Shown one piece after another: positions 17,234-39,567 of a stretch of 64,000 nucleotides of DNA. The position numbers and the translations under genes are program-made. Position 1 is the stretch's first letter. Each line of letters begins with the position of its first letter. The notes beneath the pieces are model-generated. The model saw only the letters and a list, made by a program, of their open reading frames with translations, made no database searches and was not told the origin of the DNA. This DNA comes from a virus (lineage: Duplodnaviria; Heunggongvirae; Uroviricota; Caudoviricetes): the IMG/VR virus record IMGVR_UViG_3300045988_158233. The stretch is one strand, 5' to 3'.

Positions 17234-18008
17234 AAACATCACGATAAGTATTTACTTACTTATCTTTTATGTATAAGATGACTTTGTTTTCGTTGAGACG
17301 CGACTGTTTGAACTTAAATACAAGTGCAAACGAAGAAGTCTATCTGGCAGTAGCCTAATAAGCCAAACACCAGCGAGGTCAGTTTCCAGCCTCGTTACCG
17401 AAATGGGACACACTGAGCGAGTGTGATTGCAGAACGCAGGAGGGAACATTCATGTTCCCTCCGATGAAGTAACAGAATGGGCGGTTGGTATATTTTCAAC
17501 TCCATATGACTCCCGGATTCTTAGCCACTGACCGCCCATCCTGTTACGTCATTTTGTTCAATTATGTCGTTTATACTGGGTTAAAAAGCGGCGACGTAGC
17601 CCGGCTGGTATGGTTAGCCAGCACACAACGTTGAGGCCATTACATTTTTATCAATTCTAAGGTTCTATTCACAGAGATACCGGCGAGCGTTGATATGTAA
17701 CATGTTGGGCAAACATTCAATCGGAGTAGTGGCCTCAACGTTGTGAAGACAGGATTGTTGTGTAGGTTTAACCACTGTTGCCATTGGTGCCTGTTTTCAC
17801 AACAAATGATTCCATACATCACATTGTATAAATTACAAAGTAGGTGCTGTCCTCAAAAACATCATCTACTTAAAGATTTTGCCTACTATTGAGCGAAGTC
17901 GAAAGCGTCTGGCACTAACGAAAAGTGCAAGTAGCGGTGCGTTTCCTGGCAGAAACTAAACCGTCGCGATTGGCACTGTTGAGTAATAAATACTGGCAGT
18001 GTCGAATT

Positions 18009-31540: not shown

Positions 31541-31657
31541 TTTTTGATAGATAATAAGTAAGTACTGATCTATCATTTAACAGCTCGAAAGAGCCACGAA
31601 TGAACGAAAGCCCAACGCGCATAGCGCCATCGGCCAAATCACAACAAGGAGAAACAC

Positions 31658-33959: not shown

Positions 33960-35033
33960 ATGGCAAAAGGAAAATCCGCACTGGCACTTGCTCTGAAAAA
34001 GAAAATCGGTAGCAACGACGAAATTCAGAAAGTAACTCATTGGATTGATACAGGCTTTCCACCGTTAAACAAAGCTATTTCTGGTCGTTACGATGGCGGC
34101 TTCCCATGTGGTCGTATCGTCGAAGTATTCGGTCCTCCAAGTGCAGGGAAAACGTTCCTTGCAACAGCAGCGATGATCTCCGCTCAAAAACAAGATGGTC
34201 TGGCGGTATTCCTCGATCATGAAAACAGTTTTGACGTTGGCCTGGCTGTAGCCAATGGCCTGAACGCAGATGAGGATGACGGTCAGTGGGTATACAAGCA
34301 GCCAGATACCTTCGAAGACTCTGTAGAGTTGATCGGCACAATACTTAAATTGGTTCGTGATGAAGAGCTTATCCCCGAATCAGCACCTATCTGTATCGTG
34401 GCTGACTCTCTTGCGTCTATGGTTCCGAACTCCAAAGCTGAGAAGTTCGAAAAGATGGCTGAAGGCACTGCCAAAGACAAAGATCAGCTAAACATGAACG
34501 ACAATACGGCACTGGCTCGTGCGACGAGTGCGAACTTCCCTACTCTGGCTTTGTGGGCACGCAAATACAACGCCTGCATCATCTTCTTGAATCAGGTTCG
34601 CACAAAAATCGGTGTAATGTTTGGCGACCCTACTACGTCGCCAGGTGGAGATTCACCGAAGTTCTACGCTTCTGTACGTATCCGTCTTGGTGCATCGGTG
34701 ATGAAGGATGGTAAAGAGAAGATCGGCCAGGACGTAGGCGCAGAATGCATCAAAAACAAAGTTGCACCACCGTATGGCAAATGCACCTGGAAATTCTACT
34801 TCGATCCTACTCGTGGCCTCGACGTTATCGAATCGCTCGTCGAGTACATGCTGGAAGAAGGATACCTGCCAAAGAACGCCAGCGGGCGAGTTGAAATTGG
34901 TGACAAGAAATACACCAAATCGCAGATCGTCGAGATGTATCGGGAGAAGCCACTGGCTGAAATCATTGCGGCTTTGCAGGCAATCGACGACCGAAGAGCA
35001 AAAGACAACCCCACCGAGTCAGTAGAAGAGTAA
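33960..35033 (+). CDS. RecA-family recombinase (UvsX/Sak4-like)
   Basis: 357 aa; GRIVEVFGPPSAGKTFLATA matches the RecA Walker A context. Confidence 0.7.
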   Translation: MAKGKSALALALKKKIGSNDEIQKVTHWIDTGFPPLNKAISGRYDGGFPCGRIVEVFGPPSAGKTFLATAAMISAQKQDGLAVFLDHENSFDVGLAVANGLNADEDDGQWVYKQPDTFEDSVELIGTILKLVRDEELIPESAPICIVADSLASMVPNSKAEKFEKMAEGTAKDKDQLNMNDNTALARATSANFPTLALWARKYNACIIFLNQVRTKIGVMFGDPTTSPGGDSPKFYASVRIRLGASVMKDGKEKIGQDVGAECIKNKVAPPYGKCTWKFYFDPTRGLDVIESLVEYMLEEGYLPKNASGRVEIGDKKYTKSQIVEMYREKPLAEIIAALQAIDDRRAKDNPTESVEE

Positions 35034-35037
35034 ACAC

Positions 35038-35063
35038 AAGGCGTCCACAGGACGCCTTTTTTA
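35038..35063 (+). terminator. Rho-independent terminator
   Basis: aaggcgtcc-acag-gacgcctt hairpin then tttttt. Confidence 0.65.
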
Positions 35064-35125
35064 TCTCTTGAAAATATATAAGTACTTACTTATTATTTTC
35101 GCATAACAACCACATAGGAAAACAC

Positions 35126-35326
35126 ATGATCAAAATCTATCTATTGGCAGTAGCCACAGGCCTTTCAGTGGCTCTCATCTACGGTTTACTGGTTCCGTCG
35201 CTGATTTCTACCAAGAGTGATTTAGCCGTCATGTTTGGAGTTATCGTTGGTTTTGGTGCTCCTGTAATCGGTCTTATTGCTGGTCGTAAGTTTATCAACT
35301 CATTAATCAAAGCAAAGGGGAAATAA
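35126..35326 (+). CDS. Small two-TM membrane protein (NfeD-like partner position)
   Basis: 66 aa, two hydrophobic segments; immediately upstream of the SPFH gene. Confidence 0.4.
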   Translation: MIKIYLLAVATGLSVALIYGLLVPSLISTKSDLAVMFGVIVGFGAPVIGLIAGRKFINSLIKAKGK

Positions 35327-35329
35327 GTA

Positions 35330-36160
35330 ATGAAGAAAGGTTTACTTGCAGTTGCTCTGGCGGCTATTTGCACAATGGGTCTTACTGGCTGCGATCGCGT
35401 GGAGCCTGGATACGTTGGCATCAAAGTAAACAAATTAGGTGAAGACAAAGGGATTGGTGAAGTGGTTGGCGTTGGTCGCCAATGGACAGGTCTTAACACC
35501 GAACTTTACGTATTCCCGACCTTCAAACAAATGAAGACCTACGACGAGCCGTTCACATTCCAGATGAGTGACGGTACTGCTATTGGTCACAAAATTGGCG
35601 TTGCGTATCTGGTTAATCGTGACAAGGTAACGACGGTGTTCCAGACCTATCGCAAAGGCGTAGACGATATCACCGAATCAGATCTGCGTCAGAAAATTGC
35701 CGACTCTCTAAACCGTTTGGCCAGCCGTATGACCACTGACTCATTTATCGACGGTGGTAAGGCACAATTGCTGGACAACGCACTGAAAGATATTCAGAAA
35801 GAGATGTCTCCGGTTGGTATTGAGGTACTGAGCCTGTCATGGGTTGGAAAGCCTGATTACCCAAAAACTGTCATTGAATCTATTAACGCCAAAGTAACGG
35901 CTAACCAGCGTACTCTGCAACGTCAGCAGGAAGTTGAACAACGTAAAGCTGAGGCGAATATGCTACGTGAACAGGCTAATGGTGAAGCTGATGCTATCCG
36001 TGCTCGTGCGCAAGCAGAAGCAGACGCCATTCGTCTGCGCGGTGAAGCTCTGCGTCAAAACCCGAACGTTATGGAACTGGAAGCCATCAATAAATGGAAT
36101 GGCCAGTTACCGCAGTACATGACTCAAGGGGCTAACACTCCTTTCATTACAGTGAAATAA
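35330..36160 (+). CDS. SPFH/band-7 (stomatin/prohibitin-like) lipoprotein
   Basis: Lipoprotein signal MKKGLLAVALAAICTMGLTGC; SPFH-like core starting VEPGYVGIKV; C-terminal charged coiled-coil with repeated EADAIR. Confidence 0.55.
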   Translation: MKKGLLAVALAAICTMGLTGCDRVEPGYVGIKVNKLGEDKGIGEVVGVGRQWTGLNTELYVFPTFKQMKTYDEPFTFQMSDGTAIGHKIGVAYLVNRDKVTTVFQTYRKGVDDITESDLRQKIADSLNRLASRMTTDSFIDGGKAQLLDNALKDIQKEMSPVGIEVLSLSWVGKPDYPKTVIESINAKVTANQRTLQRQQEVEQRKAEANMLREQANGEADAIRARAQAEADAIRLRGEALRQNPNVMELEAINKWNGQLPQYMTQGANTPFITVK

Positions 36161-36176
36161 CTCCCCTAAAAAGTTC

Positions 36177-36203
36177 AGGCGTCCAGTTGGACGCCTTTTT
36201 TAT
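36177..36203 (+). terminator. Rho-independent terminator
   Basis: aggcgtcc-agttg-gacgcct hairpin then tttttt. Confidence 0.65.
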
Positions 36204-36222
36204 CGCAATTATCTTATTAAGA

Positions 36223-36235
36223 AAACAATTTGTTT
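36223..36235. promoter_or_regulatory. AAACAA-T-TTGTTT palindromic site (family member)
   Basis: Perfect 6-1-6 palindrome 23 nt upstream of the ATG at 36252. Confidence 0.5.
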
Positions 36236-36251
36236 AAAAGGATAAGAAAAC

Positions 36252-37771: not shown

Positions 37772-37817
37772 ATGCAAACTGACTGCGGCACGTTCCGCAG
37801 TCATATTTCATAGTCGT

Positions 37818-38351
37818 CACCGCTGACAGCATACACAATCAACTGCCGCTGATAGCATATCGAGAGTCTATCTCACCGCTCACAGCATACTTTACTCGAT
37901 TTTTTACCGCTGACAGCATACTTAAGACATTGCATGAATAATGTGTACCGGTATGGGTATAACCAGAACAAAATTACCGCTGGCAGCATACGAAGGTCTG
38001 ATATATGCCATTAATTACCGCTGATAGCATATCCAAACAAAAATTCCTCAATAAAACACCGCTGACAGCATACGTTCTATCAGGGAGCAGCAGGCAATAA
38101 ATACCTTTCACTACAAGTAATCAGCGCAATGGGAATAGAATGTTAGTGAGCGCAAACCTATATGGAATGCACTCTTCGAGGTTAGTAACCACTGGGGAGG
38201 TATAAAAGAGCATTGAGTGGTGATAGATGATTTACCGCTCACAGCATACGTTTATCTCACTATACCGCTGGTAGCATATCTTTAACCGTTCACAGCATAC
38301 TTTTCAGAAAAATAGCCGCTGATAGCATACATTTCACCGCTGACAGCATAT
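37818..38351. repeat. Iteron array downstream of repA (about 12 copies of a 17-bp repeat, consensus yACCGCTGAyAGCATAy)
   Basis: Copies at about 37818, 37844, 37874, 37905, 37975, 38026, 38057, 38233, 38263, 38284, 38314, 38335; irregular spacing; all in the same orientation. Confidence 0.8.
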
Positions 38352-39445
38352 CAAAGCAGTTTGAGACTATTGGAAAGGATCTCAATCATCTTGATATTTT
38401 CAGGCGTCAAATTCTGCGAAAGTTCAGTTATCTTGTTGATAATGTTCTGTTTAGCATCAATTTCCCCGGCTTTCTCATCTGGTTTTTTGGGTTCGATGTC
38501 TTCAGGTTTTGGCGGTGCGACTTTAAGTTTTGGATTGCGGCTGTGAATCTGGATATAGATCGACCGCCCTCGCTTAATCTCGCTGTATTCGAGATAGCCC
38601 AAATCTTGGAGAGCTTTTAAGCCGTTACGTATAGTCTGATTCTGCGAGCTTACATTCCTGCTACTCAAATTGAGTCGCGCACGCAATCGAGCAAGCGATA
38701 CCGGCGCAGGCTTGGTTGGAAGACTTTCGATGAAGGTGTACAGAGCCTGTGCTGTTTCTTTGCGTGGTAGCTTATTGATAACCTTTAACTGCAAAAGAAC
38801 CTTATGGTCAAAGCGATATAGTTCGGCCAGCTTCGGTTCTGCATAGAACACCACCGTATCTTTCTGCTCGTTGTAGTCCACGCTATTGATGAGGTGCACC
38901 ATCAGAAGCGAGATCTTGTTAGAGCCGTCGACGTTCTTTTCTTCATACGTTCTCTGGAAAGACAGAGTTGTACGCATGATCTTCAAAAGACTGTTTGTAA
39001 GCCGGTCGCGGAGTGTTTTGCGGATCTGTGACGATGGATAGCCACAAAACTTCGCAAATTTCGTGATGCTTAACTCGACACGACCGTTAGGTTCGCCGTA
39101 TTCTGCCAGCGAACGCACAACGCCCACCCACGTTTTGAAATCATGATCCATGTCGAGACGAGGACCGGTTATCTTGATATCGGAATAGCCTTCAGAACGG
39201 GCTACTTCGAGCTGAACAAGCTCCTTTGAAGCATCGATCTCATTTGGCTTGTTACGCTTGCTGTATTTTGTCCCCTTGAGCGTGGGCACGAACAATCCCA
39301 GCCGCATCAACGCAATTGGTTGGACTGTATTGTTGCTATTAGGGACAAGTTCCCCTGTGTACAATTCAAGGGAACCTTCTTCAAAGTTGTCGAGATTATC
39401 TTCTACTTCTTTGTTATTTTTACCTTTTTTATTTTTTGTGGACAT
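38351..39445 (-). CDS. repA: Iteron-type plasmid replication initiator (RepA-like)
   Basis: Minus-strand ORF flanked on both sides by iteron arrays; start trimmed to the Met (MSTKNKKGK...) that does not overlap the upstream iterons; basic N-terminus, ~365 aa. Confidence 0.65.
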   Translation of the reverse strand: MSTKNKKGKNNKEVEDNLDNFEEGSLELYTGELVPNSNNTVQPIALMRLGLFVPTLKGTKYSKRNKPNEIDASKELVQLEVARSEGYSDIKITGPRLDMDHDFKTWVGVVRSLAEYGEPNGRVELSITKFAKFCGYPSSQIRKTLRDRLTNSLLKIMRTTLSFQRTYEEKNVDGSNKISLLMVHLINSVDYNEQKDTVVFYAEPKLAELYRFDHKVLLQLKVINKLPRKETAQALYTFIESLPTKPAPVSLARLRARLNLSSRNVSSQNQTIRNGLKALQDLGYLEYSEIKRGRSIYIQIHSRNPKLKVAPPKPEDIEPKKPDEKAGEIDAKQNIINKITELSQNLTPENIKMIEILSNSLKLL

Positions 39446-39464
39446 GTGGACACCTTTGTCATTC

Positions 39465-39567
39465 AACCGCTGACAGCATACTTGATTTGCCGCTGACAGA
39501 ATACCAAAAACAGTTGGCAGCATACGGTGAACCGCTGACAGACTATCAATTACCGCTGACAGCATAC
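39465..39567. repeat. Iteron array upstream of repA (about 5 copies; probable origin/autoregulatory region)
   Basis: Copies of the same repeat at about 39465, 39488, 39515 (partial), 39529, 39551. Confidence 0.75.

Follow-up and report, generated by a model that had tools for sequence, protein, structure and literature searches.

Positions 35,126 to 36,160 of a 64,000-nucleotide (nt) stretch of viral DNA, IMG/VR record IMGVR_UViG_3300045988_158233 (the whole stretch is called the window below), very probably carry an accessory two-gene cassette, a conditional 'moron', whose larger product has the architecture of the cage-type SPFH proteins. The window represents an SSU5/pHCM2-type phage-plasmid, as judged by its sequence relatives and the genes neighbouring the cassette. 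The first gene encodes a small membrane protein of 66 amino acids (aa) and the second a predicted SPFH lipoprotein of 276 aa. The second gene is already annotated in databases as 'SPFH domain-containing protein'; what is added here is the family of its small partner together with natural fusions of both proteins, the repeat-bounded cassette with its empty site, the distribution across phages and the conditional expression. Whether an SPFH cage works together with the small partner is an even question, and protection of the envelope or exclusion of phages as the outcome is proposed only tentatively. The explanation taken as a whole is given a probability of about 0.5.

A preliminary description of the locus had listed both open reading frames (ORFs), with two transmembrane (TM) segments in the first product and the lipobox LTGC in the second, and had assigned the second to the SPFH proteins. 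Both ORFs were found as described, on the plus strand, the features as a whole going far past anything chance would give, and the SPFH assignment was upheld by the profile search and by the predicted fold. Pfam Band_7/SPFH (PF01145) matched residues 23-209 with E=2.6e-30 (106.2 bits against a cut-off of 23.6), and the comparison with PHROG 200, annotated 'lipoprotein', gave 3e-108. The N-terminus, MKKGLLAVALAAICTMGLTGC-DR, contains all the elements by which a lipoprotein signal was recognised, namely, in the first ~40 residues, an n-region (here MKK), a hydrophobic core and the pattern [LVI][ASTVI][GAS]C. In the family alignments the lipobox Cys does not vary, and the protein is predicted to be a lipoprotein and a substrate of Lgt/LspA.

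The AlphaFold2 model of the SPFH protein (predicted local distance difference test score, pLDDT, 76), built from a comparatively shallow alignment, comprises a beta-rich N-terminal part, helices and one long helix spanning residues 179-243. This helix and a weak Pfam Flotillin coiled-coil match at residues 208-266 bear out the C-terminal coiled coil proposed earlier. The C-terminal 30 residues were disordered in the monomer model, as may be expected of a cap that folds only in the oligomer. A Foldseek search against the PDB retrieved HflK (1.5e-14), PHB2/PHB1, HflC, erlin1/2, stomatin, flotillin, QmcA and the major vault protein, the matches to cage-type SPFH proteins having E values from 1e-14 to 1e-7 and a probability of 1.00. 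At the sequence level only HflK was detectable among solved structures when the single SPFH sequence was used (E=0.007), and the family profile reached QmcA, the prohibitins and HflK/C at 1e-7 to 1e-5. The family alignment revealed a strongly conserved C-terminal motif, NPxVMELEAINKWNGxLP..PF. A full-library search yielded 195 clusters (50% identity) with E<=1e-30, rising to 902 with E<=1e-10, and a further search with the family profile added little diversity. The large protein is exported, with a lipobox and the full cage-type layout of SPFH domain, long coiled-coil helix and conserved tail, and forms a distinct SPFH subfamily nearest in spirit to the 'prokaryotic prohibitins' (SPFH4).

The likeness to prohibitins is seen in the near full-length alignment of the family profile with PHB1 (residues 16-234, E=1.8e-6, the longest of the profile alignments; QmcA and HflK score similarly) and in the annotation of relatives of the phage protein as SPFH_prohibitin. 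The SPFH4 'p-prohibitins' were described as predicted periplasm-facing proteins without an NfeD partner and as unstudied (Hinderhofer et al. 2009, PMC2636767). Compared by description only, they differ from the phage protein in that the lipobox anchor and the dedicated small partner are absent from that account.

The 66-aa product contains hydrophobic segments at approximately residues 1-29 and 31-54 and matches PHROG 1130 ('membrane protein') with E=2e-25. Between the segments lies the conserved loop motif YGLLVPSLISTKSD (residues 19-32), which in the family takes the pattern G-h-h-h-P-x-L-I-S-A-x-S/D; the fuller signature of the partner family reads G(-4)-h-h-h-P(0)-x-L-[IVF]-S-[AS]-x-[SD]-[DTS]-x-x-V(+11)-x-x-G(+14). 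The C-terminal tail of the window protein is basic. Since the loop is acidic and the tail basic across the family (mean net charge -0.74 and +1.58, respectively), the positive-inside rule predicts an N-in/C-in topology with the conserved loop in the periplasm. In the alleles of the small protein shown in the database matches residues 19-35 (YGLLVPSLIS.KSD.AV) are near-invariant, the one difference being G20C in the Cyrano-type alleles.

The preliminary description had regarded the small membrane protein and its SPFH neighbour as a recurring bacterial module. Its recurrence was confirmed, whereas the bacterial label was not, the module being one of phages, and the partner is not a classical NfeD. 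Searches of Pfam and NCBIfam gave no match for the small protein, and because the 66 residues are wholly occupied by the two TM helices and a 14-aa tail there is no room for an OB-fold; an NfeD identity was rejected on these grounds. The resemblance to the NfeD-SPFH operons (QmcA-YbbJ, PH1510-PH1511) lies in the two-gene arrangement of a small membrane protein and an SPFH protein, sometimes fused. The phage partner, however, is devoid of an NfeD/OB-fold domain, and QmcA-type SPFH proteins face the cytoplasm whereas the phage SPFH protein is exported. In entry 8z5g, deposited as the QmcA-YbbJ complex, QmcA is present as 26 chains.

The association of the two genes was examined in loci collected from other phages. 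A tblastn/word-based search with the small protein recovered copies of the SSU5 type only, since this protein diverges fast and homology searches miss its distant copies; partners were gathered by gene context instead. An abutting ORF of <=120 aa with two TM segments was found in 79 of 80 close loci; in the lone exception the sequence extends only 210 nt upstream of the match. The diverse set comprised 114 unique loci of environmental phages, of which 77 had an abutting ORF with >=2 TM segments, against a background of 4% for other small ORFs; a further 9 had a one-TM ORF, and in 10 a two-TM ORF lay within 450 nt. The gene junctions across loci are start/stop overlaps (-4, -8 or -1 nt) or a 3-nt gap, and the small protein is translationally coupled to the SPFH gene. 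It is a conserved, dedicated partner of the SPFH protein.

The two proteins also occur as one chain. About 18 of the 150 best cluster representatives (about 12%) are single ORFs of 320-390 aa (14 found by script; P0198, P0200, P0214 and P0238 added by inspection), in which a 2-TM domain with the P-x-L-I-S motif is followed by a basic linker, a signal peptide with the lipobox Cys and the SPFH domain. In the model of one such fusion (pLDDT 82) helices 6-31, 36-57 and 60-74 precede the SPFH domain. The existence of fusions accounts for ~80 extra N-terminal positions in the PHROG 200 profile and implies that the C-terminus of the small protein must be cytoplasmic. At the level of sequence, the fusions serve as Rosetta-stone evidence for a joint function of both proteins, and a fusion would, if its lipobox were processed, give rise to the two mature proteins that the two-gene form produces. 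In the window the two ORFs share strand and reading frame, with only TAA GTA between them (35324..35332). Read-through of this stop codon would recreate the fused architecture, as relatives with a continuous ORF exist.

The pair had been viewed in the setting of a phage-plasmid, with membrane remodelling, superinfection exclusion and protease regulation as candidate roles. It is not special to phage-plasmids: the SPFH lipoprotein was found by tblastn in 413 phage records, including many strictly virulent phages. The carriers comprise the temperate phages phiP27, Stx2a phages and P2-like P88, the N4-like phages Moo19, Jura, AlfredRasser and KpCHEMY26, PVP-SE1 (Vequintavirinae by its record), phiEa104 (Ounavirinae), Pseudomonas phage TL (Bruynoghevirus), a Desulfovibrio autographivirus, phiCbK and Lak megaphages. 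A 2-TM ORF of 62-73 aa lies directly 5' of the SPFH gene, often overlapping it, in P88, SSU5, Moo19, Vibrio CKB-S1 and ProddE, and in PVP-SE1 the partner is located one gene further upstream. The pair genes of Moo19 are annotated as homologues of N4 gp19 and gp20. The pair (PHROG 1130 and PHROG 200) is a widespread phage module and not a peculiarity of phage-plasmids. In the reference record of phiP27 (NC_003356; locus L003, 2316..2504) an unannotated 62-aa 2-TM ORF, MRLYFTIVILLAIIACIYGLLVPFLISMKDT..., extends 4 nt into the start of lipoprotein gene L05; the ORF supplies the partner gene that this record lacked and recurs in related prophage contigs.

Elsewhere the neighbours of the pair are heterogeneous, mostly genes of replication, recombination and nucleotide metabolism, such as those for a Gp2.5-like single-stranded DNA-binding protein, sliding clamp, RusA, a sigma factor, HNH endonucleases, DNA polymerase and exonuclease. 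Among the neighbours in the loci examined there were no structural or lysis genes. This gene position points to early or middle expression of the pair in lytic growth.

The cassette lies between two directly repeated copies of one terminator. The motif GGCGTCC-N3/4-GGACGCC occurs twice in the 64-kb window, with 0 copies expected; both copies flank the cassette and each is followed by TTTTTTATC, in agreement with the terminators that had been placed on both sides (Table 1). In a first scan two copies were present in 23 of 26 SSU5-type loci with the pair, and SSU5 itself and Cyrano, the phage-plasmid carried by E. coli LF82, also have two; in the other 3 loci only the right copy was found by exact match. 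Two checked plasmids without the pair have one copy each, after recA, and no copy is present in the lambdoid and P2-like contexts. CP056788.1, a near-identical E. coli plasmid without the pair, has recA running straight to the DUF7238 gene, and the junction consists of the left flank of the window, the hairpin of the left copy (loop ACA), TTTTTTATC and the right flank of the window. As this empty site is exactly the expected product, the pair can, to judge by the junction, be lost by recombination between the flanking terminator repeats.

The presence of the pair varies among related elements. With many ~110-kb non-mobilizable E. coli plasmids the region shares 99.9% identity; for the Escherichia phages CMS-2020a, PhiR41_1 and Cyrano the figure is 94-99%, and for Salmonella phage SSU5 it is 79%. 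Megablast counts, made at the DNA level so that diverged copies may be missed, gave for the pair region and the recA region, respectively, 180 and 189 records in Escherichia, 89 and 90 in Enterobacter, 62 and 63 in Yersinia, 45 and 45 in Salmonella, 21 and 22 in Citrobacter, and 3 and 242 in Klebsiella; for Cronobacter 9 records matched the recA region and the pair region was not listed. The one Klebsiella plasmid inspected was without the pair. The pair is intact in Y. pestis CO92 pMT1 and present in SSU5-like Salmonella plasmids. Among complete E. coli genomes 283 of 5,426 (about 5%) have a copy, the match covering >=80% of the cassette in 195; plasmids account for 198 of the places and chromosomes for 101, with ~76% identity in the chromosomal matches shown. 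The pair is an accessory cassette and not a universal structural component, the alternative that had been named as contradicting the preliminary description. The signal peptide, the non-structural neighbours and the accessory distribution speak against a virion component, and this role was rejected. For the homologue in the Vi01-like phage Sajous1 only 3 peptide retrievals were reported, under 'miscellaneous functions'.

Different cargo can occupy the region downstream of recA, which is a variable slot. In an Enterobacter ludwigii plasmid (L094, 4626..5384, minus strand) the slot after recA is occupied by an unrelated 252-aa gene of unknown function. In SSU5 (L002, 5261..5778) and Y. pestis pMT1 (L245, 3403..3910) an extra NinX/DUF2591 gene lies between the SPFH and DUF7238 genes; this gene is absent from the window (36161..36251). 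Comparison of the window with Cyrano (L091) revealed a sharp mosaic boundary at the gene junction, the SPFH gene being identical (831/831 nt) and the small ORF only 79.6% identical (73% at the aa level), with 80.4% identity in the promoter region and 79.9% at the 3' end of recA. The database alleles of the small protein are recombinants of two types.

A sigma-70-like promoter, the best site of a 6-kb region with 10/12 matches, sits between the left terminator and the small ORF. Its -35 motif, spacer and -10 motif are kept in SSU5 and Cyrano despite ~80% identity of the surrounding DNA. The spacer contains a 10-bp palindrome, TAAGTACTTA, which may be an operator and of which 7 copies with <=1 mismatch are present in the window against 1.5 expected. 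The other copies are at 17245, 22157, 30801, 31559, 45223 and 62003, those at 31559, 45223 and 62003 being again flanked by TTGATA-like -35 and TAT-rich -10 motifs; the copies may mark a shared operator or promoter class of the phage-plasmid.

Expression of the pair was followed in published RNA-seq data for Cyrano, a relative whose promoter region is 80% identical to that of the window, where the genes are CYRAN_56 and CYRAN_57 (values are log2(fpkm+5), fpkm being fragments per kilobase per million, two per condition; PMC9928086, S1 Table). The small-protein gene CYRAN_56 was at the floor in overnight cultures in lysogeny broth (LB; 2.32 / 2.32) and reached 7.61 / 7.70 after 6 h in macrophages (PMC9928086). 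The corresponding values for the SPFH gene CYRAN_57 were 4.3 / 3.0 and 7.25 / 7.42 (PMC9928086). The flanking genes changed from 3.56 / 3.12 to 4.06 / 4.05 (CYRAN_55, RecA) and from 2.69 / 2.32 to 4.20 / 3.94 (CYRAN_58) (PMC9928086). The pair is a separate transcription unit that is conditionally expressed in the Cyrano lysogen. The earlier claim of an independent transcription unit is supported by the promoter and the two terminators, by the uncoupling of the Cyrano transcripts from those of the flanks and by the presence or absence of the pair across relatives.

How the module may work was deduced from these features. Signal peptidase II cleavage would leave the Cys21-lipidated SPFH protein on the periplasmic face of the inner membrane, as suggested by the Asp at +2 and the Lol-avoidance rule of E. 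coli; Asp occupies this position in the window protein and in all 80 close relatives. Through its coiled coil the SPFH protein would form a ring or cage in the manner of HflK/C or prohibitin. This assembly would sit over the small protein, whose only periplasm-exposed part would be the conserved P-x-L-I-S-x-S/D loop, and both together would fence off a patch of the inner membrane. Because of the location among early or middle replication genes in virulent phages and the induction of the Cyrano pair in macrophages, the host envelope is the module's most likely target in infection or under stress. It would protect or insulate the inner membrane, keeping it energised and intact, excluding incoming phage DNA, or both. 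Insulation of the envelope is favoured over control of lysogeny because the module is common in strictly virulent phages.

Several observations weigh against this explanation. The cassette resembles phage morons in its promoter-like site, its own terminator, its place between backbone genes, its absence from close relatives and its expression independently of the flanks in the Cyrano lysogen. It differs from them in that the pair is silent in lysogens grown in standard LB, so that it is not a classical, constitutively expressed moron, and in that its homologues are ordinary early or middle genes in virulent phages; a foreign base composition was also rejected, the GC content of the pair region (0.42-0.48) being close to the window mean (0.453). 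By a crude hydrophobicity test 18 of the 114 diverse loci have no membrane partner. Asp at +2 is confined to the enterobacterial temperate group; elsewhere Ser, Thr or Glu predominates, a residue that would in E. coli sort the protein to the outer membrane, away from its inner-membrane partner. Either the protein is localised differently from host to host, or its retention has another basis, possibly the partner. PADLOC gave no defence-model match at E<=0.1 for either protein or for the three downstream ORFs, nor any match for the alternative cargo genes of relatives. The searched literature offers speculation but no experimental work on the function of a phage SPFH lipoprotein: according to a 2026 paper on an N4-like phage the reason for such a protein 'remains unclear', and other authors speculate about an HflC-like effect on lysogeny. 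A possibly related 'HflK/C-like' protein (PM0222) of a P. multocida prophage was described as a virulence factor present in outer-membrane vesicles and signalling via TLR1/2. Such signalling would fit a triacylated lipoprotein.

A more far-reaching form of the proposal, rather doubtful at present, is that of a hitherto undescribed class of phage membrane organelle, in which a lipid-anchored periplasmic SPFH cage would enclose a dedicated viroporin-like 2-TM protein and control the permeability of, or access to, the inner membrane; in SSU5-type elements it would have been rewired into a stress-inducible lysogenic-conversion cassette. N4-like, Vequintavirinae, Vi01-like, P2-like, lambdoid, SSU5-like and other phages would use it, possibly for blocking the DNA of competing phages, for shielding against membrane-targeting abortive-infection effectors or for timing lysis.

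Among the other explanations considered, an HflK/C mimic was judged unlikely. Here the ring would capture or modulate FtsH or another membrane protease and so alter the turnover of membrane proteins of phage or host and, in temperate phages, the choice between lysis and lysogeny. HflK is the nearest solved sequence (6e-6 with the profile) as well as the top fold match, the predicted periplasm-facing position at the inner membrane and the order of SPFH domain, long coiled-coil helix and C-terminal tail are those of HflK/C, and the topology is shared with the prohibitins, which like HflK/C cage AAA proteases. FtsH, being universal, would fit the broad host range, and the idea was put forward by other authors. 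On the other hand, membership in either family was rejected, the scores being far below the cut-offs (30.2 vs 134.4 bits for HflC, TIGR01932; 18.7 vs 159.4 bits for HflK, TIGR01933), and the identity is only ~17-19%. In the phage-borne protein a lipobox takes the place of the N-terminal TM anchor, and in lieu of the K/C heterodimer pair there is one SPFH gene, which follows a 66-aa ORF. The dedicated small partner suggests that this protein, and not FtsH, is the client, and control of lysogeny cannot be the general role of a module so common in strictly virulent phages.

Superinfection exclusion as the specific function was likewise considered improbable. Phages are known to produce small envelope proteins early, such as Imm and Sp of T4, Llp of T5 and Ltp of TP-J34; Imm has two TM segments and lies in the inner membrane, and others are lipoproteins or periplasmic proteins with a membrane anchor. 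The pair could, like T4 Imm/Sp or Ltp-type lipoproteins, block genome entry of later phages at the inner membrane. The envelope site, the early or middle expression and the accessory, sporadic distribution agree with such a function, as does the allelic mosaicism of the small gene next to an identical SPFH gene. An annotated exclusion gene adjoins the pair in Moo19 (gp29) and in the Vi01-like phage SH19, but a general link was rejected, since GP17 was found in only 1 of 109 upstream neighbours, namely in the Moo19 sequence that had been added deliberately. None of the known proteins named above is an SPFH protein or related to the pair in sequence or fold, neither homology to a known exclusion protein nor a PADLOC match was found, and lysogens grown in LB, which ought to display exclusion, keep the pair silent.

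Lysogenic conversion was thought quite unlikely. According to this explanation the cassette would encode a stress-induced lipoprotein that raises tolerance to envelope stress, or a TLR2-active surface or vesicle lipoprotein acting in animal infection. E. coli HflKC reportedly contributes to tolerance of aminoglycosides and oxidative stress. The Cyrano pair rose by ~3-5 log2 units in macrophages compared with LB, the small gene from the floor, and the intact copies in Y. pestis pMT1 and SSU5-like Salmonella plasmids, as well as the Pasteurella prophage protein required for virulence, are also in line with it. The occurrence of the module in virulent phages would nevertheless be left unexplained, the Pasteurella protein is only possibly a member of the family, and, since macrophages raise the expression of other Cyrano genes too, the induction may be due to partial derepression of the prophage. 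Finally, a module for lysis timing or permeability, with a holin-, antiholin- or viroporin-like small protein restrained or organised by an SPFH scaffold, would suit the class-II holin layout of the small protein (~66 aa, two TM segments, N-in/C-in, charged C-tail) and the fact that eukaryotic stomatins regulate ion channels, but it has little to recommend it given that in the loci examined replication genes and not endolysin or spanin genes adjoin the pair, that no PHROG or Pfam holin or spanin match was obtained and that intracellular lysogens whose phage production is reportedly blocked express the Cyrano pair.

The insulating cassette proposed here bears on a wider question. SPFH cages (HflK/C, prohibitin, stomatin, flotillin, erlin) are structurally understood and their roles in bacteria are still unclear. 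Phages offer a minimal, self-contained version, one lipid-anchored SPFH protein and one 66-aa partner, sometimes in one chain, which makes it possible to test how an SPFH cage affects a membrane and for what reason so many phages require it. Natural plasmids with the cassette and with the empty site, the latter represented by pRHBSTW-00180_3, the N4-like phages of the BASEL collection and the loop motif for mutagenesis provide convenient material. If phage exclusion or tolerance of envelope stress in macrophages proved true, the cassette would be of relevance to phage therapy and to the fitness of clinical Enterobacteriaceae carrying phage-plasmids.

Table 1. Features of the cassette and its surroundings in the window
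Feature	Position	Strand	Remarks
RecA-like recombinase gene	33960..35033		upstream of cassette; intein-free, 357 aa
Left terminator repeat	35038..35065	+	AAGGCGTCC-ACA-GGACGCC-TTTTTTATC; hairpin 35038..35058; intrinsic terminator of RecA-like gene
Sigma-70-like promoter	35068..35096	+	TTGAAA-17-TATTAT
Palindrome in promoter spacer	35079..35088		TAAGTACTTA, 10 bp
Shine-Dalgarno of small ORF	35116..35119	+	AGGA
Small inner-membrane protein	35126..35326	+	66 aa, two TM helices; PHROG 1130
SPFH/Band-7 lipoprotein	35330..36160	+	276 aa; PHROG 200
Signal peptide (predicted)			residues 1-20 of SPFH protein
Lipobox Cys21	35390..35392		LTGC; Asp22 at +2
SPFH domain			residues 23-209
Long coiled-coil helix (modelled)			residues 179-243
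Conserved C-terminal motif			NPNVMELEAINKWNGQLP..PF
Right terminator repeat	36177..36204	+	AGGCGTCC-AGTT-GGACGCC-TTTTTTATC; hairpin 36177..36196; terminates cassette
Rep3-type initiator gene	38351..39565	-	

The neighbours of the cassette in the window, identified by Pfam, encode a 5'-3' exonuclease, the RecA/UvsX-like recombinase, DUF7238 and the Rep3-type initiator. In Cyrano, CP056788.1 and many related plasmids the recombinase gene is 2,340 nt long and annotated as containing an intein or a LAGLIDADG homing endonuclease, so that an intein presence/absence polymorphism directly adjoins the cassette. Immediately upstream of the initiator gene, at 37814..38352, there are 11 iteron-like direct repeats with the core ACCGCTGACAGCATAC, which probably constitute the plasmid replication origin.

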